The notes: generated from the sequence alone by a model not told the origin. 22,409 bases of DNA from Bdellovibrionota bacterium FG-2 (GCA_051382305.1 JBBCAV010000044.1:1-22409), one strand, 5' to 3'; positions 1,455-15,009 are shown, counted from the first letter of the stretch. Program-made: numbers and translations.

Positions 1455-2170
1455 AGTGTATACCCCGCGGATTCAGCGTCTGATTTGAACATTCGGACCG
1501 TATCCAGACTGAGCTGGGTGAGGTCCTTGCCAAACATCGACATTTTTTTGATGATGTCAAAGGGGACGGTGATGATGTGACAACCGGATTGTTCGGCCTG
1601 CAAAATATTCAAGGCTTCACGCGTACTGGCCCAGAGGAGTTCGATATTTTTATCGGCACTTTCAGCCATTTCCACTGCAGCACTCATGAGCGGCATCGGA
1701 TCCCGTCCGGTGTCAGCGATGCGGCCGGCAAAAATAGACACAATCGAGTGGGCGCCCCCTTTGAGGGCCTGGCAAGTTTCCCAGGTTTGTTTCAAAGTTA
1801 AAAGCGCGGTGACGTTGAGCTTGACGTTCTTATGGGCGAGTTCGTGAACGAGCGGGATCGATGAGATGCCTTCGGAGTTGGTGATCGGGATCTTGACGTA
1901 AACGTTGGAACCCCAGTTCGCGATTTCAAGAGCCTGGCGACGCATTTCATTGAAATCATCGGCAAAAACTTCAAAGGAAATTGGCTTAGTCTTGATTTGA
2001 CCCAAGATATCCTTGCAGAAGGCTCGGTAATCTTTGATCCCGGCTTTTTTCATCAAGGTTGGATTGGTCGTCATCCCTTGAATTGCAGGGTTCTTATCCA
2101 TTTCGAGCATCGAGGCGCGGTCGGCGCCATCCGAATAAATTTTTACTTTTAAAGTCTTGGTTTGGGACAT
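1451..2170 (-). CDS. tal: Transaldolase (short TalC/FSA type)
   Basis: Motifs GMTTNPTL, NVYVKIP (Schiff-base Lys), SIFAGRIADTG and LLWASTRE. GGAG RBS upstream. Confidence 0.92.
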   Translation of the reverse strand: MSQTKTLKVKIYSDGADRASMLEMDKNPAIQGMTTNPTLMKKAGIKDYRAFCKDILGQIKTKPISFEVFADDFNEMRRQALEIANWGSNVYVKIPITNSEGISSIPLVHELAHKNVKLNVTALLTLKQTWETCQALKGGAHSIVSIFAGRIADTGRDPMPLMSAAVEMAESADKNIELLWASTREALNILQAEQSGCHIITVPFDIIKKMSMFGKDLTQLSLDTVRMFKSDAESAGYTL

Positions 2171-2243
2171 TACTTGACTCCCTTTGTTCTTGTTTGGAAT
2201 TTGACAAAGTCTAAAAGATTTCCGCCCAAAAATGAAGGCTTAA
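2170..2243 (-). pseudogene. Orphan 3' end of a gmhB allele (copy D) abutting transaldolase
   Basis: Encodes KPSFLGGNLLDFVKF versus KPSFWGKDLLEFVGF in intact GmhB. Shares an exact AATGAAGGCTTAA with the other copies. Its stop overlaps the tal start (TAATG). Confidence 0.75.
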
Positions 2244-2339
2244 TTTGTTTCGTTCGGGATTTGATGTCAAACGGTTCTTTACTCCCTCGTGCGAGAATCT
2301 CAGAGGTGGGGGTATGAACTATGGTCCTCCCTAATTCCC

Positions 2340-2389
2340 AAAATACTACCATTTAACTGCTTGCAAAAGCATATTATTGGTAGTATTTT
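2340..2389 (+). promoter_or_regulatory. Putative sigma70 promoter enclosed by a perfect 12-bp inverted repeat (candidate operator)
   Basis: AAAATACTACCA (2340-2351) pairs with TGGTAGTATTTT (2378-2389). TTGCAA(2361)-17 bp-TATTTT(2384). ATG at 2396 has no evident RBS. Confidence 0.55.
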
Positions 2390-2395
2390 TAACAA

Positions 2396-3553
2396 ATGGC
2401 CCATTTTAGACCAAGACAGGCAGCAGCTCATCTTAAAAAACTAGCCTCCTTGTGGCCCGCCGTCGGCGTGCTGGGATTGCGGCAGGTCGGTAAGACTACC
2501 TTTTTAGAAAAGCAGGTGCGTTTTCATTCGAACGCATCACTGGATCATGACTCGACACGAGGAGACGCCGAAACCCCCGCTTTAGTCGATGAAATCCAAA
2601 AGGTGCCTAAACTTTTTGATGCCTTGAAGCTCCTCGTGCACAAGAACAGGAGACCCGGGCAATTCTTTGTCACAGGATCAGTTTCTTTCTCAGAAGGAAG
2701 TGGCATGAGAGAGTCGCTCACCGGAAGAATGGGCGTTCTTCAGTTATTTCCTTTAAATATTTCCGAATCCTTAGAAATGGGGTCTCCTGGATTACCCACC
2801 TTAAAAATCAAGGAAATAAAAGATGGGTTTATTCCTCGCATTTCGCTGCAGGATTTCTCCAAGGCGATGGTTCGAGGGGGGATGCCGGTACCTATGTTTC
2901 TCAGAGATCGGTCTCAAAGCGAGCTGTTTTGGAGTGGTTGGTTAAATACCAGCATTTTACGCGACCTTGCCCGACTCATGAAAAAAGGCTTTGAAGCCGA
3001 TTTTGCCTTCTCCCTTTTGGAGCAAATGGGAAGGACTTTGCGAGAAGGAGAGCTTCCAACGACGGCCCACTTTCAGGCCTCTTCATCACGAAAACTGAAT
3101 CGTTATCTCTTAGGTTTAGAGAGTATTTTTATGATTCGAAAAATCCCCTGCCACGAACTCGGGACTGGAAAAGATGTATGGCTACCCACGGATTCTGGCC
3201 TAGCCAGTTATTTAATGAAAGAGACACAGGAGGAAGGGGCGACGCTTTCACTCGCAAGACTCACGTTGTTGAATGAACTTTTTTCGCACCACGAATATTC
3301 AGGAACGCGATTTTTTGTCCGGTACTTTAAAAGTGCCAAGGGTACTCCCGTTGATATGGTTTTGGATAATACTCCAATTCGGGTGGTTCCTCTGGCAGAT
3401 GTCAACCGTGGTCCTTGGGGTTGGCATGAGAAATCGGTATTGGGTGCAATGAAGAAATTAAAATCCAAACGGGGAATCTTACTCGCGCCAGTTGACCGCG
3501 CCCACGTTCAAGAGTCAGGAATATCCATCCTCCCGTGGACCATGTGGAGTTAG
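2396..3553 (+). CDS. AAA+ ATPase, AAA_14/DUF4143-type
   Basis: Walker A GLRQVGKTT, Walker B LVDEIQ, plus VTGS, ESLTGR and GGMP motifs. C-terminal YFKSAKGTPVD is a degenerate restriction-fold motif. Confidence 0.85.
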   Translation: MAHFRPRQAAAHLKKLASLWPAVGVLGLRQVGKTTFLEKQVRFHSNASLDHDSTRGDAETPALVDEIQKVPKLFDALKLLVHKNRRPGQFFVTGSVSFSEGSGMRESLTGRMGVLQLFPLNISESLEMGSPGLPTLKIKEIKDGFIPRISLQDFSKAMVRGGMPVPMFLRDRSQSELFWSGWLNTSILRDLARLMKKGFEADFAFSLLEQMGRTLREGELPTTAHFQASSSRKLNRYLLGLESIFMIRKIPCHELGTGKDVWLPTDSGLASYLMKETQEEGATLSLARLTLLNELFSHHEYSGTRFFVRYFKSAKGTPVDMVLDNTPIRVVPLADVNRGPWGWHEKSVLGAMKKLKSKRGILLAPVDRAHVQESGISILPWTMWS

Positions 3554-3695
3554 AGCATTGCCAATGGTGACCTGCATGCATAGGGCGTTGCGCCATTCTC
3601 TATTCACCTGAAGCCTGGTAACCTTAGTAACAGTCAATAGGAATTCACTGGAATGAGGGGATCACTCGGGTTATTCAAATACTGGGAAAATATAA

Positions 3696-4418
3696 ATGAA
3701 TTTCGACGCCGTTAAAGTACCGAAAAAGATCACTCCTTGCCCAATAACTGAAGCTGTTGTCGAGTTGCGCTTTGACTCAAGTCTTCCAGCCGAGGTGATG
3801 CCAGGCGTCGTTTTCAGTAAGTTTCAAAAGGATTTTCCGAAGATCGAGAAATTGCCAATAATGGAGCTTCCGCCGGCCATTAGGGATGGCGATCCAAATT
3901 TAAGATTTACCCCGCAGTATCGCCTTACCAACGACGATTTCGTGTTTCAGATCGGTCCAAAATGTTTTTCTGTTGTTTGTCCGAAGGAATACAAGGGCTG
4001 GACAAAGTACTATACTCAGCTTGAAAAGGTTTTTGACGGCATTAAGGAACTTGCCATTATTCAAAAACCTATCAGGGTTGGCTTACGCTACATTTCATTT
4101 TTTGAAGACACCGATATTTTTGAAAAGATAAAGATTAACCTTTCTCTCGCGGATAATTCGCTCATTGGATCTAATAACATCGTAAGAAGTGAATTCAATT
4201 ATTCAGGGTTTCGCTGTGTCATTCAGATCGCAAACGGTGCTCTTTTAAGTGGAAAAGTTAAAGGCTCAAGCGTAGATATCGACGTAATTTCTGACAAAAG
4301 TGGGTCAATCTTGAGCGATTTCAAGGGAATAGTTAATTCCGCTCATGAGGTTGAAAAAAGACTCTTCTTCGGAATTCTTAATGAAGACTTCTTGAACAAG
4401 TTTAATCCGGAGTATTGA
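3696..4418 (+). CDS. TIGR04255-like protein
   Basis: N-terminal PITEAVVELRF, YKGW, RVGLRYI, VDIDV and C-terminal AHEVEKRLFF match the pattern I recognise for this sporadically distributed family. 240 aa. Confidence 0.75.
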   Translation: MNFDAVKVPKKITPCPITEAVVELRFDSSLPAEVMPGVVFSKFQKDFPKIEKLPIMELPPAIRDGDPNLRFTPQYRLTNDDFVFQIGPKCFSVVCPKEYKGWTKYYTQLEKVFDGIKELAIIQKPIRVGLRYISFFEDTDIFEKIKINLSLADNSLIGSNNIVRSEFNYSGFRCVIQIANGALLSGKVKGSSVDIDVISDKSGSILSDFKGIVNSAHEVEKRLFFGILNEDFLNKFNPEY

Positions 4419-4422
4419 TACG

Positions 4423-4785
4423 ATGACTGTCCAATACGGAGACAAGACCTCTGGCACTAATGGTATCGGGATGGTGGTGCTGACAACGACTACGGTGGCC
4501 CTCGCACTTGCTACAGTCTCTGCGTACCGCCCTGCTTCCCTGCTCATTGGAGTAGAAAAAAGTAGCATCAAGCCGGTTGCTGGATTTAGTCATCATCAAG
4601 TACGAGAGTGGGAAGCAAGCCTGATGGGGGCTCAAAGCACCGGTGGTGAAGACGTCTTACAAAGGGATGCTGCTGACTATTATCGAGTTTCACACTTTGC
4701 CCAGAGATTTATTTCGGAACAGTCAGATGTGCCGCCAGAATTTGAGAAGACCTTTCGTGAAAATTTCTGGGATATTCTTGCGTGA
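4423..4785 (+). CDS. Small hypothetical protein (middle gene of the three-gene module)
   Basis: Starts 4 bp after the upstream stop and overlaps the next gene (GTGA). Hydrophobic N-terminal stretch and acidic/aromatic C-terminus (FRENFWDILA). Confidence 0.7.
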   Translation: MTVQYGDKTSGTNGIGMVVLTTTTVALALATVSAYRPASLLIGVEKSSIKPVAGFSHHQVREWEASLMGAQSTGGEDVLQRDAADYYRVSHFAQRFISEQSDVPPEFEKTFRENFWDILA

Positions 4786-5423
4786 TTCCAGCGGCATTTG
4801 AGGATTTTCGGATTTACCTCCCGAAGTATCTTTCCGAAGAACAACAAAAGCAGTTATTTGACGAGCTGTCGTCCTTTCCTGCCAATGTCGACAAAAGATT
4901 TTATACCTCTCGATTAAAGGATGAGCCGTTTCTTTTTCAGGGGGATGGATATGGCGCAATCCTAATGGCAGATTATGCTCAAGAAAAATTTCGTGAGGTG
5001 AAGGGGTTTTTGGTTAGCAACACGTGCGATGCCTCATTGGAGAATAAGAGGCTTTTTAATCCGTTCCTTTCATTTGCCCCTATTTTCAGCCTAAAAAAAT
5101 ACGAAGAAGTCCTCATTCATCAACACGATGGGGAGGTGGTTGCGCAACATATCGATTCAATTCGAAAGCAGCGTATCACGCCTTTTTTCTTTTTACCCTC
5201 TGGCGGCATTGACGAGGAAGAGTGTTTTGTGAGGCTAGATTGTGCCTTCAGTTTGCCGGCGTCCGAAGATCTGATCAACGAACTACTTCAGAAAAGACTA
5301 TTTACCCTCAGTAATTATGGATTCTACATGTTGCTATTCAAACTTTCTGTTCATCTCTCTCGGGTGCAGGAGTCTGTTGATCGCAACTCAGGGCCGACAT
5401 CTGCCGCCTTGGCAGGTAGCTAA
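4782..5423 (+). CDS. Hypothetical protein, possibly extended PemK/MazF-like fold
   Basis: The order FQGD ... LVSNTCD ... FAPI ... VRLD ... RLFTLS parallels PemK-like toxins. The fold assignment is inference. Translationally coupled to the upstream gene. Confidence 0.6.
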   Translation: MIPAAFEDFRIYLPKYLSEEQQKQLFDELSSFPANVDKRFYTSRLKDEPFLFQGDGYGAILMADYAQEKFREVKGFLVSNTCDASLENKRLFNPFLSFAPIFSLKKYEEVLIHQHDGEVVAQHIDSIRKQRITPFFFLPSGGIDEEECFVRLDCAFSLPASEDLINELLQKRLFTLSNYGFYMLLFKLSVHLSRVQESVDRNSGPTSAALAGS

Positions 5424-5434
5424 TTTGTTTCATC

Positions 5435-5461
5435 GGTGGTGTCGTGCCGGATCGCACCACC
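5435..5461. terminator. GC-rich hairpin after cassette 1 (possible terminator)
   Basis: GGTGGTG (5435-5441) pairs with CACCACC (5455-5461). No clear U-tract on either strand. Confidence 0.3.
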
Positions 5462-5489
5462 AATAGTGATATCCAATTAGATCTTGAGA

Positions 5490-6126
5490 CGCTTGCCACC
5501 CAAAAACACCACAAACTCCAACAAATCCTTCCCCCAGAATGAAGGCTTAAGCCCCATTAAAGGCAGTCGAAATCCCGAGCGAGGCCCCAGCTTGAATATC
5601 GGTCACGCCATCCCCGACCATCCATAACCCTGATGCGCGCAGGAGGTGATTTTCGCCGGTGGCGAAAATTTCTTTTAAATATGCCGGGCCGCCGTGCGCC
5701 TCAATTGCGGCCTCAAGGAGTCCCGTTTTGGGCTTGCGACAAGCACACTGATCCTCACTGCGATGGAAGCAAATATGGGAGCTCTGAATCACGCCCCCTT
5801 GCGCCTGCGCGGCCGCAAGAACAGCTTGGTGCGTGTCCTCTAGGTTTTTGCGCGTCGTCTTGCCTGAACTTGTCGTAGAGCTTGATTTTACCATCCCGAA
5901 AAACGACGTTGCTCGTGTCCCATTGGCCTTCGTTTTTGAAAACTGTCATGAGCGCTGGAGCGCCGTTTGCCAAAAAGGTCTCCCAAACCGCCCCACAATC
6001 GACCGGCAAAAACGAATCCCCATAGGTCATCAAAAACTGGGGGTCTAAAACCCCTTGATCGAGCGCCAGTCTGAGCGCGCCCGCAGTACCTCGAAGTTCA
6101 GATCCTTCATCGACATACCGTACCTT
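5490..6126 (-). pseudogene. Repeat copy C: internally deleted, frameshifted hddC'-'gmhB fragment
   Basis: Aligns by eye to about 10057-10573 plus 11016-11278. Out-of-frame junction at CCT 5863-5865. An additional ~41-bp deletion lies at about 5558. Confidence 0.92.
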
Positions 6127-6233
6127 AGCAAGATTGTCTTCATTGATTCGACCGACAAGATGGAAATTTTGTTCGATTTCGAATAGATAAACCACATGAT
6201 TTTAACCGGTTACGTTTTTAAAGTAATAAAATC

Positions 6234-6325
6234 TTGCATTATGTTCGCTTTGTTGTAACATTGTGGGTAGTAATGTGTGTTTTTCTTGCATATCAAGTCA
6301 ATAGAGCAGGCATCACCGCAAGGAG
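6234..6325 (+). promoter_or_regulatory. Putative promoter and RBS of cassette 2
   Basis: TTGCAT(6234)-16 bp-TAACAT(6256). An ATGTT/AACAT dyad spans 6241-6261. AAGGAG at 6320-6325 precedes ATG 6332. Confidence 0.45.
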
Positions 6326-6331
6326 TGGCCA

Positions 6332-7465
6332 ATGAAAGAAATCATCGGCCGACGCATCAAGGATGAGCGATCTCGGCAGAATTTTACTCAGGATGAGCTA
6401 ATCAAGGATGCCCAACTAGATTGGGACAGGCAGACTCTCGGTCAAGTCGAGAACGGCGAGCGGGATTTGAAAGCTTGGGAGCTTGCAAGAATTTCTCGGG
6501 TTCTTCGGATGGATATGGCCACCTTCTTTCCTGGCTGTGAAACAGCCGCCAAACAACCCTTTGTACTCTGGCGTTTGCAGCCTGAAAATCACAAAAGATT
6601 GGAAGCTGAGTTCATTCGGCTCTGCAAGGACTACAGATTCGTCGAGGATCTCAACGCTATTGACGCAAAAGGTTTCAGAATACTTCCCGGTAAGCAAATT
6701 GATCTCCGATCTTTCAGTTACTCCGACGCTTATGCACTGGCTGAAGAGATCCGAAGTGATCTTGATCTGGGCGACTATCCCGCAACCGCTCTGGTTAAAG
6801 TACTTGAAGAAAAATATGGAATCAAATTTTTCTTCAATGAACTCGGTGGCAATGGTTCGGCGGCCTCGAGTGTCTCTGACTACGGTCAATGTGTTTTGAT
6901 CAGTTCAAGCGAACCCGCATGGAGACAACACTTTAGTATAGCCCATGAGCTGTTTCATATTATCACTTGGAACGATGAACTGCTCGAACATGTTGGCTCT
7001 GATAAAGACCTCTGGAACAAGAACGAAAGCCTGGCGAACGCTTTTGCCGCTGGCCTTCTTGTTCCCACCGAAGCACTTCATCGTGAAATTAGATTGCTTC
7101 CCAAGAAGAACAAGCTCAACGACGCAGGGATCGTTTCCATAGCGCGGCAGTTTGGAGTTTCACTTGAAGCCCTTCTATGGCGAATGGCTGGGTTGAACAT
7201 CATTAGCAGAGATTCTGTCAAAAAAACGATTGTTGATGAAAAGCTCCACTCGTTGGATCAAGAAAGTCGCGCTGAAGCTCATATGCCATATTACCTGAGT
7301 AATCGTTTCGTCCGCATGGCCTATGTTGCTTACGAGAACGGTGAAATTAGCCGCGCTCGGCTAGCTAAAATATTGAGCCAATCCCTATCAGCTCTTCCGG
7401 ACTATTTGAAAAAATTCGGTTTAGCAGAAGTCAGCAATAATGAAATCCCGCTTAGTCATACTTGA
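6332..7465 (+). CDS. XRE-type HTH fused to ImmA/IrrE-family Zn metallopeptidase
   Basis: N-terminal HTH (IGRRIKDER...TQDEL...VENGER). RQHFSIAHELFH carries HExxH. ESLANAFAAGLLVP. C-terminal ISRARLAKIL. Confidence 0.92.
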   Translation: MKEIIGRRIKDERSRQNFTQDELIKDAQLDWDRQTLGQVENGERDLKAWELARISRVLRMDMATFFPGCETAAKQPFVLWRLQPENHKRLEAEFIRLCKDYRFVEDLNAIDAKGFRILPGKQIDLRSFSYSDAYALAEEIRSDLDLGDYPATALVKVLEEKYGIKFFFNELGGNGSAASSVSDYGQCVLISSSEPAWRQHFSIAHELFHIITWNDELLEHVGSDKDLWNKNESLANAFAAGLLVPTEALHREIRLLPKKNKLNDAGIVSIARQFGVSLEALLWRMAGLNIISRDSVKKTIVDEKLHSLDQESRAEAHMPYYLSNRFVRMAYVAYENGEISRARLAKILSQSLSALPDYLKKFGLAEVSNNEIPLSHT

Positions 7466-7973
7466 TGCCAACGTCATCATCAAAGCTTTTTCCGGAAACT
7501 TCTGGAAGACCCTGATCACCCAGTACGACGTTTACATCACCTCCATCGTTTTACACGCCGAAGTTTATTATTACATGGACAAGAACGGCCAAAAAATATC
7601 GATCGACCTGACTGCTGGCATTAACTCCGGGAAGATCATAGAACTCACGGCAACACCTAATGAGATTGCGACACTCGTTAATAAAGTGAATCCCAACTTT
7701 ATGGATCGTATCGACGATGGTGAGCAAGAAGCGTTGGCACTTCTATTAACCGGCCGCTTTGAGGATTTTCGATATTGCACTGGAGATACGAGAGCCATCA
7801 AAGCATTGGCAAGCCTAAATCTTGGTCCTCTTGGTATTTCACTCGAAGAGGTGCTGGATGCCATTGGGCAAAAGGGAAAATTACCTGATCCAAGTTATAG
7901 TAAGGTGGCTTTCGATAAGAAAAAAGCGGAAGGCATACAAGAGCAGACTATGTTTCTAAAAAAGAAGCCATAA
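7440..7973 (+). CDS. PIN-domain protein (putative RNase toxin)
   Basis: Acidic PIN motifs VILDANVII, DDGEQEALAL and TGDTRA. Overlaps the upstream gene by 26 bp. Confidence 0.8.
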   Translation: MKSRLVILDANVIIKAFSGNFWKTLITQYDVYITSIVLHAEVYYYMDKNGQKISIDLTAGINSGKIIELTATPNEIATLVNKVNPNFMDRIDDGEQEALALLLTGRFEDFRYCTGDTRAIKALASLNLGPLGISLEEVLDAIGQKGKLPDPSYSKVAFDKKKAEGIQEQTMFLKKKP

Positions 7974-7977
7974 AGCC

Positions 7978-8642
7978 GGGTCGCCACGAGCATTCGAAAA
8001 CGCTCCAATGCCTACAAGCCCCTTCGCTTGCCACCCAAAAACCCCACAAACTCCAACAAATCCTTCCCCCAGAATGAAGGCTTAAGCCCCATTTCTTCGA
8101 AGATTTTGCAGGCATCGCATTTCTGGGGGCCTAAAAAGGCTGTCGAAATCCCGAGCGAGGCCCCAGCTTGAATATCCGTTATCCCGTCTCCAATCATCCA
8201 TGCTGCCGGGCCGCCGTGCGCCTCAATTGCGGCCTCAAGGAGTCCTGTTTTGGGCTTGCGACAAGCACACTGATCTTCACTGCGATGAAAGCAAATATGG
8301 GAACTCTGAATCACGCCCCCTTGCGCCTGCGCGGCCGCAAGAACAGCTTGGTGCGTGTCCTCTAGGTTTTTGCGCGTGGTCCTGAATTTATCGTAAAGCT
8401 TGATCTGACCCTCTCGAAAAACGACGTTGCTCGTGTCCCATTGGCCTTCGTTTTTGAAGACCGTCATGAGTGCTGGAGCGCCGCTTGCCAAAAAGGTATT
8501 CCAAACCGCCCCAAAATCGACCGGCAAAAACGAATCCCCATAGGTCATCAGAAATTTGGAGTCCAAGACTCCTTGGTCGAGCGCCAGTCTGAGCGCGCCC
8601 GCCGTGCCCCGAAGCTCAGTGCCTTCGTCGACATACCGGACT
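7978..8642 (-). pseudogene. Repeat copy B: in-frame hddC'-'gmhB chimera (open frame 8012-8704) plus ~35 bp of gmhB downstream flank
   Basis: Aligns by eye to about 10007-10567 plus 11009-11278, fused at GCGT(C/G)GTC (8374-8381). Lacks both the GGLATR and DRDG catalytic motifs. Confidence 0.92.
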
Positions 8643-8849
8643 CTTATTTTAAGTGCCGTAAATTTGGCACTCTTTTTGCTTTTTAACCTAATATTGAGCT
8701 TCAATGGCCGTCAGCTTCGCTAAAAGCCATAAGAAATTGTATTTTAAGGTTTTTAGGGTTTCACTCAAGATGCCGATATTATATTTGAATGTTGCTACTT
8801 TACCGTAATTAGAGATATGGAATTTTTAGGGTTGAACTGTTAAACTATC

Positions 8850-8858
8850 TGATATACT
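8850..8858 (+). promoter_or_regulatory. Putative extended -10 promoter of cassette 3
   Basis: TGATATACT (TGn-TATACT) in an AT-rich intergenic region just upstream of the ORF at 8863. Confidence 0.4.
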
Positions 8859-8862
8859 TAAT

Positions 8863-9117
8863 ATGGCGCGTCATATGAATACTATGAAACCTATCATTAC
8901 CTTTAATCAAGAAGCCAAGGACGTCGTATTAGACGCTTTAGATAAAGCAAAAGACGCCGATGGTTTCATCGTTGAGAAGGGTAATCCTCTTCAACGTGTC
9001 CTCACAAAAGACGGTGAAGAAGTACCTGTATCAAAGTTTGCTGGTGTGAAAAAAGGATCTCTAATTTTCTTCAAATCGGATTTTAGTTCGTTAATTGAAC
9101 TCGCCAGCGATTTGTGA
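8863..9117 (+). CDS. Small hypothetical protein (start may be 8875 or 8884)
   Basis: Protein-like composition. GTGA overlap with the next gene. Confidence 0.7.
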   Translation: MARHMNTMKPIITFNQEAKDVVLDALDKAKDADGFIVEKGNPLQRVLTKDGEEVPVSKFAGVKKGSLIFFKSDFSSLIELASDL

Positions 9118-10007
9118 CTGACCTGAGATTTTTCGAGAAAGTTAAAAAGCTAGTATCTCGAATTAATATTCGAATTGACCTTAGTCGCTTCATAAATATT
9201 CAAGTCAACAACATCCACATCGCTAAGAATGATACCGATGCTATCTACGATGTCAAAGGTACGACCGCTCGAATCAACGTTCAGAAGCTGACTCAAATAG
9301 AGTTGAAAGAATTTCAACATCTTATCAATAGCGCCATCGACGATAGCATTCCTGTTATCGAGGAGCAATCCCACAATCTGGTCGAAGATTTTCTCGAAAA
9401 AGAGAAAAACTCCGGAACGCAACATATCTTACAAACGCTAAACGGCATTATTACTCCCGAGGATTACCAGGCGTTGCGAATGTCTCTTTATGTTAAGCAG
9501 GTTTTCGCTGAAGGCAAAAACATATCGCGCCTTAAGAATGACATCTCCTTTAAGTATGGTGATCGCGGCAATAAAATTTGTAATTTATGCTCAGCTGGAT
9601 ATTTTGAGACTTTTATTATCCCCCTTTATAACGAGATGAAATCTCGTTCTGGTTTTGATTCGGCGGCATTTCTGAAAATCTATGATGTTATAGTTAACCA
9701 AACTGCCTTCTCGGTATTTGTAAGTCGCAATATGTCGCTTGGTGAAATCGCGACAGCAGTTAAGAACAAGATTGCCGTGAACGAAAAATACGGCATCCAC
9801 TACTTTAATATTCATGGAATCGGCAAGAGTAACGTCAATAATATTCGGGCAGTCTTCACTAACTTAGAAGTAGAGAGAAACCTCACTAAAACCATCAACG
9901 AAAAAGATGACGTAATCTCTGTTAGGTGTGAATTTATTCCTTTGGCGCATGGCAGCCAGACTCTGACTGAGAAGTCCTCGTCTTCAACAACTCCTTCCAA
10001 AGAATAG
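9114..10007 (+). CDS. Hypothetical protein, 297 aa
   Basis: Long AT-rich ORF with no motif I can assign. Contains GNKICNLCSAGYF and IHGIG. Confidence 0.8.
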   Translation: MTDLRFFEKVKKLVSRINIRIDLSRFINIQVNNIHIAKNDTDAIYDVKGTTARINVQKLTQIELKEFQHLINSAIDDSIPVIEEQSHNLVEDFLEKEKNSGTQHILQTLNGIITPEDYQALRMSLYVKQVFAEGKNISRLKNDISFKYGDRGNKICNLCSAGYFETFIIPLYNEMKSRSGFDSAAFLKIYDVIVNQTAFSVFVSRNMSLGEIATAVKNKIAVNEKYGIHYFNIHGIGKSNVNNIRAVFTNLEVERNLTKTINEKDDVISVRCEFIPLAHGSQTLTEKSSSSTTPSKE

Positions 10008-10041
10008 GGTCCGCCGCGAGTATTCCAAAACGCGCCAATGC

Positions 10042-10767
10042 CTACAAGCCCCCTCCCTTGCCACCCAAAAACCCCACAAACTCCAACAAATCCTTCCCCC
10101 AGAATGAAGGCTTAAGCCCCATTTCTTCGAATATTTTGCAGGCGTCACATTTTTGAGGGCCTAAAAAGGCTGTCGAAATCCCGAGCGAGGCGCCAGCTTG
10201 AATATCCGTTATCCCGTCTCCAATCATCCATAAAGTGGTTTCTGGAGAGGGATGTCGCGAAAGCAAACTTCCTGTTTTTACACAACTTTCGCCATCCTTG
10301 GCTGTTGTGATTTTCGCGACACCACTCTCCAGTAAACCTGATGCGCGCAGGAGGTGATTTTCGCCGGTGGCGAAAATTTCTTTTAAATATGCCGGGCCGC
10401 CGTGCGCCTCAATTGCGGCCTCAAGGAGTCCTGTTTTGGGCTTGCGACACGCGCACTGATCCTCACTGCGATGGAAGCAAATATGCGAGCTTTGAATTAC
10501 GCCCCCTTGCGACTGCGCGGCCGCAAGAACAGCTTGGTGCGTATCTTCGAGGTTTTTGCGCGTCGTCTTGCCTTTAGCTGCCGAGGGTTGGTTGGTCACA
10601 ATCGCCAGGGCATATCCTGCTTGAGTGAGGCGAGCCAACGCTTCGGGCACGCCCGTAATCAGCTCGACTTGCGAAGGATGGAGCGGGCTATCGATGGTTC
10701 CATGTTCGGGATCGACAACGACACGGTTCAACACTCCATCCCGGTCCAGCAAAATCAGGGGCTTCAT
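10042..10767 (-). CDS. gmhB: D-glycero-D-manno-heptose 1,7-bisphosphate phosphatase (HAD IIIA) with a ~52-aa extra loop
   Basis: Motifs LLDRDGV, VTNQP, CFH...CACRKP (Zn site) and WMIGDG..DI. ATG 10767 has a GGAG RBS and an ATGA overlap. Confidence 0.92.
   Translation of the reverse strand: MKPLILLDRDGVLNRVVVDPEHGTIDSPLHPSQVELITGVPEALARLTQAGYALAIVTNQPSAAKGKTTRKNLEDTHQAVLAAAQSQGGVIQSSHICFHRSEDQCACRKPKTGLLEAAIEAHGGPAYLKEIFATGENHLLRASGLLESGVAKITTAKDGESCVKTGSLLSRHPSPETTLWMIGDGITDIQAGASLGISTAFLGPQKCDACKIFEEMGLKPSFWGKDLLEFVGFLGGKGGGL
10234..10335. repeat. 102-bp palindromic element in frame within gmhB, bounded by TAAA direct repeats
   Basis: CTGGAGAGGGATGTCGCGAAA (10242-10262) pairs with TTTCGCGACACCACTCTCCAG (10312-10332) at 19/21 positions. 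Inner CACAAC/GTTGTG stem. Precisely absent from copy C. Confidence 0.8.
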
Positions 10768-11507
10768 GGTGCACTCCCCGGCATTCTGTGCTGGGCAAGC
10801 CACTGATCAAAGTCTTTGAGTCCTTGAGGCGAGCCGATTTCGTAAAAGCGGGTTTTGACTTCCATGCCCGCCAGTTGCCCGCTTAGGCTCAGAGCATTGA
10901 AAAGCTCGGCCAAATCGGATTTGCCCACTTGAGGCACTCTCGTTTCAATCACTGATCGGTCAAAGGCCGATAGGCCATAGTCGATGTATTCCATGAGCTT
11001 GGCATCAGGCGTCGTCCTGAACTTATCGTAGAGTTTGATTTGACCATCCCGAAAAACGACGTTGCTCGTGTCCCATTGGCCTTCGTTTTTGAAGACCGTC
11101 ATGAGCGCTGGAGCGCCGCTTGCCAAAAAGGCATTCCAAACCGCCCCAAAATCGACCGGCAAAAACGAATCACCATAGGTCATCAGAAATTTGGGGTCCA
11201 AGACTCCTTGGTCTAGCGCCAGTCTGAGCGCGCCTGCCGTACCTCGAAGTTCGGTGCCTTCGTCGACATAGCGGACTTTCAGGCCCCAGCGAGAGCCGTC
11301 GCCTACGAATTTGCGGATCATCTCACCCTTGTAGGCGATGCTGAAAACGACTTCGGTAACTCCGTGCCTGGCGAGCCAGGTGAGCTGGTGGTCGGCAAAG
11401 GGACGGCCTGCGGCTTCGAGGAGCGCTTTTGGGACTTTTTCAGTCAGCGGGCGCATTCGAGTTGCGAGTCCACCGGCGAGAATCACGCATTGCACACAGG
11501 GCTGCAT
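10764..11507 (-). CDS. Sugar-phosphate nucleotidyltransferase (HddC-like heptose-1-phosphate guanylyltransferase)
   Basis: Motifs VILAGGLATRMRPLT..PKAL, GTAGAL, YGDS and EIGSP. Adjacent to gmhB. Confidence 0.88.
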   Translation of the reverse strand: MQPCVQCVILAGGLATRMRPLTEKVPKALLEAAGRPFADHQLTWLARHGVTEVVFSIAYKGEMIRKFVGDGSRWGLKVRYVDEGTELRGTAGALRLALDQGVLDPKFLMTYGDSFLPVDFGAVWNAFLASGAPALMTVFKNEGQWDTSNVVFRDGQIKLYDKFRTTPDAKLMEYIDYGLSAFDRSVIETRVPQVGKSDLAELFNALSLSGQLAGMEVKTRFYEIGSPQGLKDFDQWLAQHRMPGSAP

Positions 11508-11509
11508 GA

Positions 11510-13453
11510 TTACGAAGACCTCGTGATTTTCTTTTTAAGGGCAAAAACCGCTGAAAATAAGGCCGACCCCACTTGGGATAAGCCGGGGATTTTTCCGCCA
11601 ATCTTAGCGATGTACCGAGCGATGATGTGAGGAGGGGAGTTGAGTTGGTCCCTGAGGTGGGCCACGATTTCTTGTTGGTGAGTGACCGAATCACGGACTT
11701 GGCCCATGGTGAGCTGTAAGTGGGCATTCGCCTGCTGGCTTGCGCCTAATTGATGGTGAAGCGACTGGGTCTCTGCAATCAATTGGGTCAGTCTGTTGTG
11801 GCGCTGGTATTCTTGAAGGGCATTTCGGGGGAAGGGGGGCTGATTGAGGGGAAGGTTAAAGACGTTTCGTAGGTCTTGGAGATGTGTCTCGATATTTTCA
11901 ACCGTGGATACAGTCTCTTGAAATTCGGCTTCGCGTTGAATATCTGCATCCAGGTCAGGGGTGACGCCCAGTTTTTCGCAAAGAGTTTTGTAGAGTTCCC
12001 CAAACGAACGGAAGGGTGTTTCAGTGGAGAAGCTCTCGATCTCTCGAATGAGTCCAAAAACATTACGAAGAATAAACCAACTCGGTTTTACAGGCTCAAT
12101 AGCGGTCCATTCGAGGTCAAAAAGCTGGTATTCTGCTGGCCCTAGAACGATTGCATTATGGTAAATCGCGTCGAGTGCAAGTCCAGAAAGTTCAGAGGCC
12201 ACTTTCCATTTATTGAAAGACCAGCGTAAAAACGATTCAAGATCAGTCTGAAATCCAGACCAGTCTTTGAAGTACAGCCGTCGAACCAGCTGGGTTCTGA
12301 CCATGGCCCCTCGGGCGATGGGGGTATCCTCAGGTTGGTGCCACTGAAACTTCTTTGCTTTAGCTTGAGAGATGTCTGCACTCTTGCTTTCTAATGAAAG
12401 AGATCTTTTCTTTGTTTCGATCGGGGCTTCTAGGCTTGGGGCTGAAAATTTTGTAACCGACGGATTTTTGCGGCGGAGCGAATAATGCCATCCCAGTTCT
12501 CCTTCTGCGAGGTTGGTGCGAAGGATCTTTTGCAAAGTCTGAGATAGGGGATCGGGAGAGGCGACGAAGAGGAACGAATTGGAAAACTCAGGTAGCAGGC
12601 CGGCCTGGCTGATCGAATGCATGGCCAAAAGCTCAGGGAAAACATAAAAACGAGGAGTCCCGTAATTCTGAAAAGTCGCATTCTTGGCCATGTCAGCAGC
12701 AAGTTCAGGGGCTCGTTCGACTAGGGTGCGCGCAAGGACCGTGTTTGGGATTTTATAGTCCGGAAAGGGGTAAAACTCCTCCGTTCGCTCAAAGCCCGAG
12801 CGCTTGAGCATACCCAAAAGCTCTTGCCTCGAAAATGTGCGCGGGGTGGGTTGGGGCGGGTATCCTGCAATGCTGTCGAACATGGCGCCGGTATGGTCCT
12901 CAGCGGCTCCGCTCCAGTATTTGAGACCCAGTTTGTTTTCGATGGCCAGAATCAAAACGCCGTCTTTTTTCAAAAAGCTTGCGGCATGCCTGAGAAACTG
13001 ACCAAACGGCCCGTCCACTGAGCCGGGAGGCGGGTTGAGGTAAAGCTCCGAATATTCTAAAACTCCGATCACGCAAACCGCGTCAAAACGCTGGTCGGTG
13101 TGGAAGTCCTGAATATTGGAGACCGAGCCTTTCCAGTTTTTGAGGTCACGGAGTCGAACGGAAAGAGCGGCAAAACGAGCTTCGGTTCCTTCGACCACGG
13201 TCAGAGAGCGCGCACTTTCGGCCAGATAGCGTGAAACGCCTCCCATTCCGGCTCCGAGCTCGAGTATGTCGAGTCCTGATAGGTCCATGTGTCTAAAGAG
13301 GTTCGAGCGCTCTGGGCAGAGGTGGTATTCGACCGCCCAGTCGCCGTAGTGCTCCGAGGCAACGGAGCTGGAAGCGCGTAAATCTGTTTCGTTTTGAAGT
13401 AGGCCGAGGATCCGATTTTCAATAGTAACCCCGTCTGAGTAAGCAATCGACAT
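11510..13453 (-). CDS. Class I SAM methyltransferase with kinase-like middle region and C-terminal coiled coil (WbdD-like architecture)
   Basis: SAM motif ILELGAGMG, IGVLEY and ENKLGLKYW. Kinase-like DAIYHN...FDLEW. Q/L-rich heptads near the C-terminus. Directly downstream of wzm-wzt. Confidence 0.8.
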   Translation of the reverse strand: MSIAYSDGVTIENRILGLLQNETDLRASSSVASEHYGDWAVEYHLCPERSNLFRHMDLSGLDILELGAGMGGVSRYLAESARSLTVVEGTEARFAALSVRLRDLKNWKGSVSNIQDFHTDQRFDAVCVIGVLEYSELYLNPPPGSVDGPFGQFLRHAASFLKKDGVLILAIENKLGLKYWSGAAEDHTGAMFDSIAGYPPQPTPRTFSRQELLGMLKRSGFERTEEFYPFPDYKIPNTVLARTLVERAPELAADMAKNATFQNYGTPRFYVFPELLAMHSISQAGLLPEFSNSFLFVASPDPLSQTLQKILRTNLAEGELGWHYSLRRKNPSVTKFSAPSLEAPIETKKRSLSLESKSADISQAKAKKFQWHQPEDTPIARGAMVRTQLVRRLYFKDWSGFQTDLESFLRWSFNKWKVASELSGLALDAIYHNAIVLGPAEYQLFDLEWTAIEPVKPSWFILRNVFGLIREIESFSTETPFRSFGELYKTLCEKLGVTPDLDADIQREAEFQETVSTVENIETHLQDLRNVFNLPLNQPPFPRNALQEYQRHNRLTQLIAETQSLHHQLGASQQANAHLQLTMGQVRDSVTHQQEIVAHLRDQLNSPPHIIARYIAKIGGKIPGLSQVGSALFSAVFALKKKITRSS

Positions 13454-13463
13454 AGCATGGCCT

Positions 13464-14207
13464 TTATTTCAGGGATTGAAGATAGGCATCTGCGCCCTCT
13501 TTTGCGTTTCCGTCGTAAATCTTTTTCTGATTAGCGATCACGATACAGCGGTCACAGTGTTTTTTGACTGCATCGGGGCTGTGGGTGATGAGGATTACGG
13601 TGCGGCCTTCGTCGTGGAGGGCGTGAATTTTTTTGAGACATTTTTCCTGAAAGGCAGCGTCCCCTACAGCGAGGACTTCGTCGATTAAAATGATCGGGGC
13701 GGTGAGATGGGAGGCGATTGAAAAGCCCAGTCGAACGAGCATGCCGCTTGAGTAGTTTTTGACTGGCATGTGGATTTTTTCGTCGAGCTCAGCAAACTCA
13801 AGGATGGCGGGCAGCGCATCGAGTGTGGCCTTGCGGCCAAAACCGAGGATGGCCGCATTCAAAAAGATATTCTCGTAGCCCGAGAGGTCGCCGTGAAAGC
13901 CTGCGCCGAGCTCAATGAGTGGGGCAATCGGTGCGGAGACTTCGATTTTGCCAGATGTGGGAGTGTAGATGCCTGCGATGAGCTTGAGCAGCGTGCTTTT
14001 GCCCGCCCCGTTACGGCCCATAATACCGACAAATTCGCCTTGTTGGATGTCGAAGGAGACGTCGTTTAGGGCGCAAAAGCGTTCTCGATTGCCGAAGTTG
14101 AGTTTGCCTTTAAGGAGATTAACCAAAACGGTTTTGATGCTATTTGGACGATCACTCCAGTAGGAGAAGTTTTTGGTCAGGTGTTTGACTCGAATGACCG
14201 TGTTCAT
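13464..14207 (-). CDS. wzt: Polysaccharide ABC exporter ATP-binding subunit
   Basis: Walker A GRNGAGKST, signature YSSGM, Walker B IDEVLAVGD. Confidence 0.93.
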   Translation of the reverse strand: MNTVIRVKHLTKNFSYWSDRPNSIKTVLVNLLKGKLNFGNRERFCALNDVSFDIQQGEFVGIMGRNGAGKSTLLKLIAGIYTPTSGKIEVSAPIAPLIELGAGFHGDLSGYENIFLNAAILGFGRKATLDALPAILEFAELDEKIHMPVKNYSSGMLVRLGFSIASHLTAPIILIDEVLAVGDAAFQEKCLKKIHALHDEGRTVILITHSPDAVKKHCDRCIVIANQKKIYDGNAKEGADAYLQSLK

Positions 14208-14208
14208 C

Positions 14209-15009
14209 TTAAATTCGCTCCACGACTTCTGATCGAACGGCTTGGTGGAGTAGAATTGCCCCTATCAATACGATAGCTGCCCATGCCCCCGCTGCTCCGA
14301 TGTTGAGGGGTTGGGGCCAGTCGCCATCGACAAAAATACGGTGAAGACCCGTAAAAATAGGTGCCACGGGATTGGCAAAGAGGATCCATTTGTAGCGCTC
14401 GGGGATCATTTTTTCCTGATAGATGACCGGTGTGGCGTAAAACCAGACTTGGACGATGATTCCCATAATGTGTCGGAGATCCCTGAAATAGACAAACGCG
14501 ATGGAGAGGATCAAGGCAAATCCATAGGTGATCGCAAACAGGGCCAGCACATAATAGGGGATGAGAATGAGCGAGAGGCCGAGGTTGTGATGGGATAGCC
14601 AGGCCACCATCAATAAAATAGGAAGCGCTAGCGTTAAGGTCACGATATTAGTAATCGTCCCCACGTATGAAAAGATCTGGATCGGAACGGGAACTTTAGA
14701 GACCAGGCCCCAATTGCCTACGACTGATTCCATGCCCTCTAAGATGCTTTGGACAAAGAAAGTCCAAGGGATTGTACCGGTGAGAATGAAGATGAGATAA
14801 TTAGGGATCTGGATATTCAGGATAAGTCGGAAAACAAAGTAATAGACCCCGGCCATGGCTAAGGGATTGAGGAGTGTCCAGAAAACCCCCAGAACCGAGC
14901 GGCGGTACTTGATTTTGAGGTTTCGGCTGACCATATTGAAGACAAGAAACTTTTTGCCGAGGCAAAAGATGTCTACGCCGAAGGGTTTGAAGGCAAGGGG
15001 TTGGGGCAT
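14209..15009 (-). CDS. wzm: Polysaccharide ABC exporter permease
   Basis: Motifs KYRRSVLGVFWTLLNP, FRDLRH, FYATPVIY and NP. About six hydrophobic segments. Confidence 0.93.
   Translation of the reverse strand: MPQPLAFKPFGVDIFCLGKKFLVFNMVSRNLKIKYRRSVLGVFWTLLNPLAMAGVYYFVFRLILNIQIPNYLIFILTGTIPWTFFVQSILEGMESVVGNWGLVSKVPVPIQIFSYVGTITNIVTLTLALPILLMVAWLSHHNLGLSLILIPYYVLALFAITYGFALILSIAFVYFRDLRHIMGIIVQVWFYATPVIYQEKMIPERYKWILFANPVAPIFTGLHRIFVDGDWPQPLNIGAAGAWAAIVLIGAILLHQAVRSEVVERI

Follow-up and report, generated by a model that had tools for sequence, protein, structure and literature searches.

How does a row of unrelated genes come to be stacked inside a housekeeping operon when no recombinase gene lies beside it? 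The question is raised by a 22,409-nt stretch of Bdellovibrionota bacterium FG-2 (GCA_051382305.1, JBBCAV010000044.1:1-22409; hereafter the window), which is the entire contig C44 of the metagenome-assembled genome (MAG) G000 (4.34 Mb, 433 contigs, 85% complete, 4.4% contamination, genome GC content 49.8%). Its minus strand carries the heptose genes in the layout hddC-gmhB-array-tal-gmhA, in which the array is 7.8 kb long and contains three plus-strand cassettes, two condensed hddC'-'gmhB units (B and C) and a 74-nt gmhB tail (D). With a probability that we put at roughly 0.55, the sequence suggests that the array is a stack of three horizontally acquired modules, built up by recombination with no need of a dedicated recombinase, and the hddC'-'gmhB unit very probably served as the homology for that recombination.

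A repeat search and self-BLAST placed the copies at 10007-11279 (A, containing the full-length genes), 7978-8642 (B) and 5490-6126 (C), all on the minus strand. D, at 2170-2243 on the same strand, is what is left of an older gmhB, namely its final ~24 codons, and its repeat match covers 40 nt (2204-2243, 73% identity). The cassettes lie between them at 2244-5489 (cassette 1, GC 45.0%), 6127-7977 (cassette 2, GC 44.7%) and 8643-10006 (cassette 3, GC 38.4%), so that cassettes of 38-45% GC alternate with units of 54-55% in a genome of 49.8%. In copy A, hddC (10764-11507; PF00483, E 2e-18; NF049965 match) and gmhB (10042-10767; NF006506, E 7e-28, the match being confined to residues 13-133) are full length, and the hddC stretch repeated in B and C spans 11009-11279. 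Self-BLAST identities were 93.3, 94.2 and 91.4% over 269, 225 and 187 nt for B and A, and 95.1, 88.4 and 70.6% over 246, 275 and 177 nt for C and A; B and C are 78.7% identical across 680 aligned columns. Elsewhere in the 4.34-Mb MAG, the units match only a 75-76% paralogue on contig C19. The original prediction, made from the sequence of the window, had proposed the order D - cassette 1 - C - cassette 2 - B - cassette 3 - A, cargo on the plus strand, and a common start of B and C followed by a loss of ~445-449 bp. The first is borne out by the repeat search, self-BLAST and a four-way alignment, the second by all eight cargo open reading frames (ORFs), which are antisense to the operon, and the third by the alignment described below.

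The operon genes are found in other arrangements in related genomes. They are contiguous as hddC-gmhB-tal-gmhA in G049 and follow the order hddC-tal-gmhB-gmhA in G021 and G117, while hddC adjoins tal in G057 and G050; the window gmhA is 64-77% identical to the gmhA beside tal/gmhB in relatives. Since these relatives carry the operon genes free of gaps, the 7.8 kb is best read as an insertion into a normally compact operon. The relatives are distant (hddC 43-66% identical), the uninterrupted operon being that of G049, and no same-species genome was found.

The two condensed units have their scars in common. Both start within about 2 nt of hddC codon 75 (VRYVDEG), and in each a segment of hddC (codons ~75-166) is fused to the 3' two-thirds of gmhB; 449 alignment columns of A are missing from B and 445 from C. 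Both deletion joints are located at a direct repeat of 8 nt, GACGACGC, which occurs in phase in hddC as well as in gmhB, and the joint of C is offset by +4 nt relative to that of B. As a consequence of this offset, the joint of B is in frame and leaves one open 230-aa frame (8012-8704), whereas C is frameshifted. At the gmhB end, unit B extends 34-35 nt beyond the stop codon, as A does, and unit C has a 41-nt deletion in its tail and ends 11 nt ahead of the stop. Cassettes 2 and 3 occupy one and the same slot, bounded on one side by a point 34-35 nt past a gmhB stop and on the other by the truncation point of hddC; the junctions of cassette 1 differ from this slot at both ends. D matches the tail of A in 10 of 16 residues and belongs to a more divergent gmhB, and its stop overlaps the start ATG of tal. 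This coupling indicates that D is the original end of a gene that formerly abutted tal. Direct copies of host sequence flank the inserts throughout, as units of 637-665 nt around cassettes 2 and 3 and as a ~60-nt overlap of gmhB tails (D versus the tail of C) around cassette 1. A stretch of 50 nt is identical in the tails of A, B and C, beside the 3' end of each cassette, and the boundary of D has a 13-nt identical core in common with these tails; the homology of the units runs more than 560 nt past the 50-nt core.

Overall the copies are 79-95% identical, not near-identical, and the differences are synonymous-biased and mosaic. Substitutions were counted in the frames of the parent genes, in which ~77% would be nonsynonymous under neutrality. 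Between A and B the synonymous/nonsynonymous counts were 15/3 in hddC, 12/1 in the middle part of gmhB and 6/2 in the tail, the last being counted for this pair only. The corresponding values were 20.5/12.5 and 9/1 for A and C, and 22/14 and 5/0 for B and C (hddC and middle gmhB, respectively). Lineage-specific counts obtained by parsimony were 14/2 for A, 12/2 for B and 14/7 for C, each with p<3e-5 against neutrality, and, to judge from these counts, B's own changes are no less constrained than those of A, the working copy. The mosaic is visible in that C is the outlier in hddC' and A in the middle part of gmhB, and that the start of the C tail shows 8 differences in 18 nt (two Ile-to-Val, the others silent); the ~70 nt adjoining each cassette are 97-99% identical among all three copies. 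B and C nevertheless have their 5' truncation in common, together with derived bases at the boundary. Decay predicts mostly nonsynonymous changes, and the synonymous bias thus argues that B and C are not duplicates that decayed in place. In combination, the common scars and the allele-like mosaic sequences imply that the units were recently in, or were copied from, working hddC-gmhB alleles. Their sequences would derive from at least three such alleles while retaining one truncation, and scars and mosaic together may most simply be accounted for by homologous recombination between the unit and the full-length gene.

A course of events that could have produced the array starts from an ancestral hddC-gmhB-tal-gmhA operon into which modules were inserted at the gmhB 3' end. 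Cassette 1 may have entered through an illegitimate or one-sided event that cut gmhB 24 codons before its end and left D behind; cassette 1, D and the clipped tail of C do look like such a join. One event would then have given rise to a 5'-truncated hddC copy beginning at codon ~75, and with it a slot between the gmhB stop plus 35 nt and hddC codon 75. Later gains would have proceeded by RecA-type homologous recombination between the truncated unit and full-length hddC-gmhB, either from a linear donor of the form gene-cassette-unit via an unequal double crossover, the right arm being donor unit against recipient full-length gene, or from a circle of cassette plus unit via Campbell-type insertion. 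Both routes would leave a unit consisting largely of the former resident allele with the old boundary kept. Each gain would in this way leave a unit from the then-working allele, and the expected outcome is units with common boundaries and allele-like differences. The operon would survive intact only after crossovers in the 3' part of gmhB, a constraint that would favour condensed units. Conversely, a crossover in hddC' would either break the operon or yield an uncondensed unit that later lost ~445 nt at the direct repeat. The ~445-nt deletions themselves may have arisen twice, or may have been inherited and then patched by gene conversion.

Several observations weigh against a stack built in this manner. 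The 4-nt distance between the deletion joints means that parallel deletion or gene conversion has to be assumed, and because hddC' was never functional within the unit, its synonymous bias needs the sub-model of a former resident allele or of conversion. Cassette 1 lies outside the shared slot. Comparative searches returned little that resembles the unit: matches occurred in 16 of 127 genomes, with extra fragments in 0 of the 126 other genomes of the class; unit B DNA had one weak match (68%, in G033) in 60 relatives; the B ORF matched 26 loci in genome contigs (best 54%) and 30 loci in metagenome contigs (best 57%); and among the best 120 of its 1174 homologues none apart from the window's own covers more than 67%. 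One of the metagenome loci, L049, resembled a condensed unit at first sight and proved to be a normal operon of hddC, a gmhA-gmhB fusion and tal. Further points concern the assembly. A single public run was found to contain the stretch (X1, as Logan contigs, with 0.91 of words), and it may be the MAG's own sample; it was examined through a contig mapping in which 8 of 75 records are listed. Among these 8 records there is no array joint, excision joint, circle or alternative state, the sole joint reported lying outside the array, and the unit interiors are absent from them; the lack of excision joints in assembled contigs is itself no evidence against excision. The longest exact matches between copies, at 75-95 nt, could permit path switches during assembly, and the argument from read depth given below is built on per-contig means. 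The idea of the unit as a reusable homology arm, put forward in the original prediction, stands in part: the shared truncation of B and C and the shared slot of cassettes 2 and 3 agree with it, and the placement of cassette 1 in another slot does not.

A genome-wide self-comparison of the MAG was used to find similar architecture, and it returned a second fragment-spaced array, which counts in favour of the recombination-built stack. At C307:11539-15856 (L082, 2040-6357), the 3' fragment of an epimerase-like gene is present three times downstream of a histidine kinase, in copies that are unequal in extent and separate an NYN gene from a set of HATPase_c_4, helix-turn-helix (HTH) and M78 genes. 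The C307 flanks (88-96%) and the fragment recur at C217:259-2014 and C59:5336-5623 with other cargo, namely, on C217, a DUF6036 nucleotidyltransferase and a further ORF, with HEPN genes in the neighbourhood, and, on C59, an NYN gene different from that of C307. The locus is in this way present in three versions with different toxin-antitoxin (TA)-like cargo, which may be alleles of different strains or else paralogous loci; a search of the MAG for an intact gene from which the epimerase fragments could derive gave none. Simpler insertions were seen on two other contigs. On C177 a 231-nt duplication of an SDR gene (7573-7803 and 9495-9725, 97%) surrounds an unknown 249-aa ORF, and on C159 a 171-nt duplication of an esterase-like gene (2856-3026 and 4820-4990, 91%) surrounds an antisense AAA_14/DUF4143 ATPase, next to a Gp49/HTH_37 (HigBA-like) gene. 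Tentatively, these loci could be drawn together with the hddC-gmhB array as products of one integrase-free, RecA-driven cassette platform of the lineage, in which truncated copies of housekeeping genes act as recombination sites and, with each gain, the spacer takes up the resident working allele while the working gene takes up the incoming arm. Such allele swapping would explain how spacers stay gene-like and keep their homology. This wider proposal, taken as a whole from the array to the C307/C217/C59, C177 and C159 insertions, is possible rather than probable.

Among the alternatives to a recombination-built stack, the one that survives best is independent sequential displacement, in which each module arrives together with hddC-gmhB DNA of its donor by homology-facilitated illegitimate recombination, anchored upstream by homology and joined illegitimately downstream, and the repeats are scars that were never reused. 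This process is described for type VI secretion system (T6SS) effector-immunity arrays and Rhs orphans (PMC5361080). Here it would explain both the allele-like sequences of the units and the unusual joins of cassette 1, namely D and the end of C 11 nt before the stop, and the unequal fragment extents on C307 fit it as well. What it does not lead one to expect is that B and C should have the same hddC start, the same derived bases and nearly the same deletion, since two illegitimate joins would have to coincide, or that cassettes 2 and 3 should have common slot boundaries. We regard it as unlikely, although with some standing.

Site-specific accretion of integrase-less, mobilisable cassettes through an integrase encoded elsewhere would be a second route to the same layout, and a distinctly unlikely one. 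The attachment (att) core would be the identical segment of the gmhB tail and the units would be arms of the attP region, which suits both the 50-nt stretch identical in three tails beside the 3' ends of the cassettes and the 13-nt identical core at the D boundary. Tandem accretion of integrase-less elements is a known phenomenon. However, the units reach more than 560 nt past the putative core, mosaic breakpoints occur at several unit positions and not at one core, the junction of cassette 1 with C lies away from the core, and no inverted-repeat arm sites were found. Nor is an integrase encoded on the 22.4-kb contig: no Pfam recombinase family was matched by any of the 26 large ORFs in the window, in agreement with the original prediction that the array lacks a recombinase gene, and the inserts contain no transposase, integrase or other mobile-element gene according to Pfam, PADLOC, NCBIfam and PHROG. 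The cassette ends have no terminal repeats and no common or inverted motif, with z<=1.7 in 20 of 21 comparisons; the one exception (z 4.7) is an imperfect 30-nt similarity located ~100 nt inside coding sequence. An Rfam scan of the window at gathering thresholds gave no matches, and ARAGORN gave no tRNA or tmRNA genes.

These searches also bear on the comparison with integrons made in the original prediction, which holds by analogy only. No IntI-type tyrosine recombinase lies beside the array (26 ORFs, Pfam), and the window has no inverted repeats of at least 30 nt and no attC-type imperfect palindromes. The defining features of integrons and of CALINs (integrase-less attC clusters) are hence missing, and the array is neither. 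The proposal that each cassette has its own promoter-like leader found no support. Between 1900 and 11600, 8 sigma-70-like sites were found where shuffled sequences give 10.5, with none on the plus strand within a cassette leader, and 12 terminator-like sites compared with 12.1 expected; the three leaders are unrelated and fail to align.

An assembly artefact, in which the cassettes of different strains were chained through their common hddC/gmhB sequence, is a natural suspicion for a window that is a whole contig of a MAG in 433 contigs with 4.4% contamination, and the exact matches of 75-95 nt between copies add to it. Moreover, the population is mixed beyond ~10100 on the right-hand side, and a minor variant occurs at 2211. 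Nevertheless, joins of the leader side to truncated hddC or to D cannot arise from intact-operon alleles, and single Logan contigs of run X1 span all 6 junctions between cassettes and units (158-2236, 2211-3012, 3313-5538, 6003-8056 and 8521-10086), with at least 33 nt of contig on each side and a depth of 45-57. As per-contig means, depth is 45-57 over the left flank and the three cassettes, which indicates that these co-occur in most cells, and 15-28, with minor variants, over the unique part of A, hddC and the methyltransferase gene. Minor variants lie at 11697-11705 (11.4 of 24.1 depth), a 44-nt skip at 11736-11781, and a contig of depth ~11 diverges to the left of 2211. These per-contig mean depths suggest a haplotype break inside A, and the sample appears to hold more than one haplotype at the flanks, with the cassettes apparently common to the haplotypes. 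The copies differ by 5-21% and are on that account resolvable in assembly. An artefact is thereby left very unlikely. The last alternative, a working HddC'-GmhB' fusion kept by selection, with the repeats as paralogous genes, can draw on the open 230-aa frame of B, the synonymous bias of its differences and the existence of natural full-length HddC-GmhB fusions of ~400 aa (P0010, P0012, P0026 and others), but is highly implausible given that the unit lacks the 74 N-terminal residues of HddC and, from GmhB, the initial ~65 residues with the DxD motif region, that C is frameshifted and has the 41-nt deletion, that no such fusion protein is among the best 120 of 1174 homologues, and that B owes its open frame to a deletion that is in frame, the repeat at which it occurred being in phase in hddC and gmhB alike. 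The full-length fusions, which also include P0028 and P0058, come from several metagenomes and from MAGs labelled Myxococcaceae or Archangiaceae.

The cargo of the three cassettes was described as TA/defence-like in the original prediction, and this applies to part of it. Two of the eight proteins were matched by PADLOC and the other six were not. Cassette 1, whose sequence is unique within the MAG, encodes on the plus strand an AAA_14 ATPase (2396-3553; PF13173, E 5e-18; PADLOC PDC-S01, E 9e-43), a TIGR04255-family protein (3696-4418, E 2e-35), a protein of unknown function (4423-4785) and a phrog_4575-like protein (4782-5423). The last two match PHROG entries, all of them phage families of unknown function. 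PDB sequence searches with two cassette 1 proteins gave nothing significant, and the literature search found no paper on TIGR04255. Cassette 2 encodes, likewise on the plus strand, an HTH protein with an M78 peptidase domain of the ImmA/IrrE type (6332-7465; PF06114, E 6e-15), to which PADLOC assigned RmrA (E 9e-22) and capP (E 4e-17), followed by a 177-aa partner (7440-7973) with a weak PIN-like lead (PIN, E 0.13) and protein atlas neighbours that are partly DUF3368. Cassette 3 consists of genes for an 84-aa protein without family match (8863-9117, plus) and a 297-aa protein of an uncharacterised family (9114-10007, plus), neither of which matched Pfam, PADLOC or NCBIfam. The latter family has 771 cluster representatives at E<=1e-3, of ~270 aa, with near-invariant H234 and G237. 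In a structural model of the 297-aa protein (pLDDT, the predicted local distance difference test score, 84), residues 197-276 resemble Alba (Z score 11.2) and the Smr domain of MutS2 (Z score 9.0), consistent with an Alba/IF3-C/Smr-like C-terminal domain, and the helical N-terminal part has no clear match. A protein atlas search returned no usable match, and Foldseek with an earlier, shallow model returned nothing at E<=0.001. The Smr/Alba-like assignment of this protein and the PIN-like assignment of the 177-aa partner are leads only. On this evidence, cassette 2 may reasonably be called 'TA/defence-like', and a single cassette 1 gene is a candidate for the same description. The AAA_14/DUF4143 family is strongly expanded in the MAG, with 18 near-full-length paralogues (29-46% identity), counted at 2396-3553 of the window and in 17 other places, plus fragments. 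That these genes are themselves the mobile agent was considered and rejected: flanking direct repeats were found in 0 of 15 testable near-full-length paralogues, compared with 2 of 150 random windows.

The gmhB of copy A, which had been called intact, is of full length and, as alignment and translation show, carries a 156-nt (52-codon) in-frame insertion at 10232-10389 that is absent from B. It consists of two insertions, one nested in the other and both in frame, which separate the lysine motif from the GDG motif; in unit B this spacing is uninterrupted. Nineteen codons, with a 9-bp hairpin, are common to unit C (5621-5687). The other 33 codons are a palindrome of ~98 nt that among the units is found in A only, with a DNA fold of -38.8 kcal/mol (z -5.6). 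A second copy lies at C98:2514-2626, and the depth in run X1 is 121, with loose ends, compared with ~45. It looks like a small multi-copy palindromic element tolerated in frame.

The remainder of the polysaccharide operon lies on the minus strand on both sides of the array. Upstream of hddC are genes for an ABC-2 permease and ATPase (13464-15009) and a 647-aa methyltransferase (11510-13453); beyond D follow the transaldolase-like tal (1451-2170; PF00923, E 8e-43), a gmhA-like SIS isomerase gene (855-1454; PF13580) and a GT2 glycosyltransferase gene (70-873; PF00535, E 4e-29), the final operon gene in the window. An uninterrupted hddC-gmhB-gmhA set, 46-69% identical to the window proteins, is present at C19:7542-9457. 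Should the interrupted operon be impaired, this second heptose set could provide the pathway; it could also stem from another organism in the bin.

Small defence and TA islets are often devoid of mobility genes. Their addition to a site, as opposed to mere swapping, is poorly documented, and the locus offers a concrete route to it: a piece of the flank duplicated within the island gives homology for unequal recombination, through which content can accumulate. If correct, the platform would let several loci gain, exchange or lose TA/defence-like genes. The synonymous-biased mosaic divergence of spacers would furthermore be a searchable signature that tells recombination-refreshed spacers from decaying pseudogenes. 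As the array splits hddC-gmhB from tal-gmhA by 7.8 kb of antisense genes, it may also affect the expression of a phage-receptor pathway. The finding comes from one MAG and rests on inference, and its weight is conditional to that extent.

Integrons and CALINs are one-directional rows of cassettes with a recurring spacer beside a fixed platform. The present array resembles them as a one-directional row of unrelated small cassettes with a recurring spacer and a fixed platform, and differs in that the spacer is a 0.65-kb gene fragment and the recombination would be general and not site-specific. Restriction-modification units inserted with long target duplication (Nobusato et al. 2000, as cited there; Furuta, Abe and Kobayashi 2010, PMC2853133) are flanked by direct repeats of 30 to ~420 bp, for which a life cycle of repeat-based amplification and release was proposed. 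Like them, the array consists of accessory or defence-type genes without a mobility gene, bracketed by direct copies of host sequence. Unlike them, it has three different cassettes stacked, its 640-665-bp repeat is a composite of two adjacent genes, and its copies are 79-95% identical with synonymous divergence, compared with near-identical copies there.

Sequential displacement in Vibrio cholerae T6SS effector-immunity arrays and in Rhs and CdiA orphans was proposed to proceed by homologous and homology-facilitated illegitimate recombination, and the authors likened the arrays to integrons (Kirchberger et al. 2017, PMC5361080). These arrays likewise have no integrase, modules downstream of a conserved gene and truncated pieces between modules, and the orphan-array trait of truncated parent-gene copies ahead of displaced modules is seen here in B, C and D. 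A T6SS or Rhs module is, however, the same-orientation 3' end of the repeated gene plus an immunity gene, which is not what the cassettes contain; the cargo is antisense and unrelated to hddC and gmhB, and the parents are housekeeping sugar-nucleotide enzymes. Turnover hotspots exchanged through homologous recombination at core-gene flanks (Oliveira et al. 2017, PMC5635113; PMC11879095) and TA islets (PMC13617665) are similar in that small TA/defence sets without mobile-element genes spread through recombination of conserved flanks. Hotspots replace the content between two core genes, whereas here the flank is duplicated inside the island, which would permit addition too. No description of hddC/gmhB-fragment arrays was found in the literature searched (subscription journals and supplements lay outside its scope), in agreement with the earlier statement that none was known for gmhB, although the logic of the array has precedents (PMC2853133, PMC5361080). 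The array stands apart from the described kinds in its three stacked, antisense and unrelated cassettes, in a 0.65-kb spacer made from two housekeeping genes, in the allele-like divergence of the spacers, and in the recurrence of such architecture at several loci in one genome.

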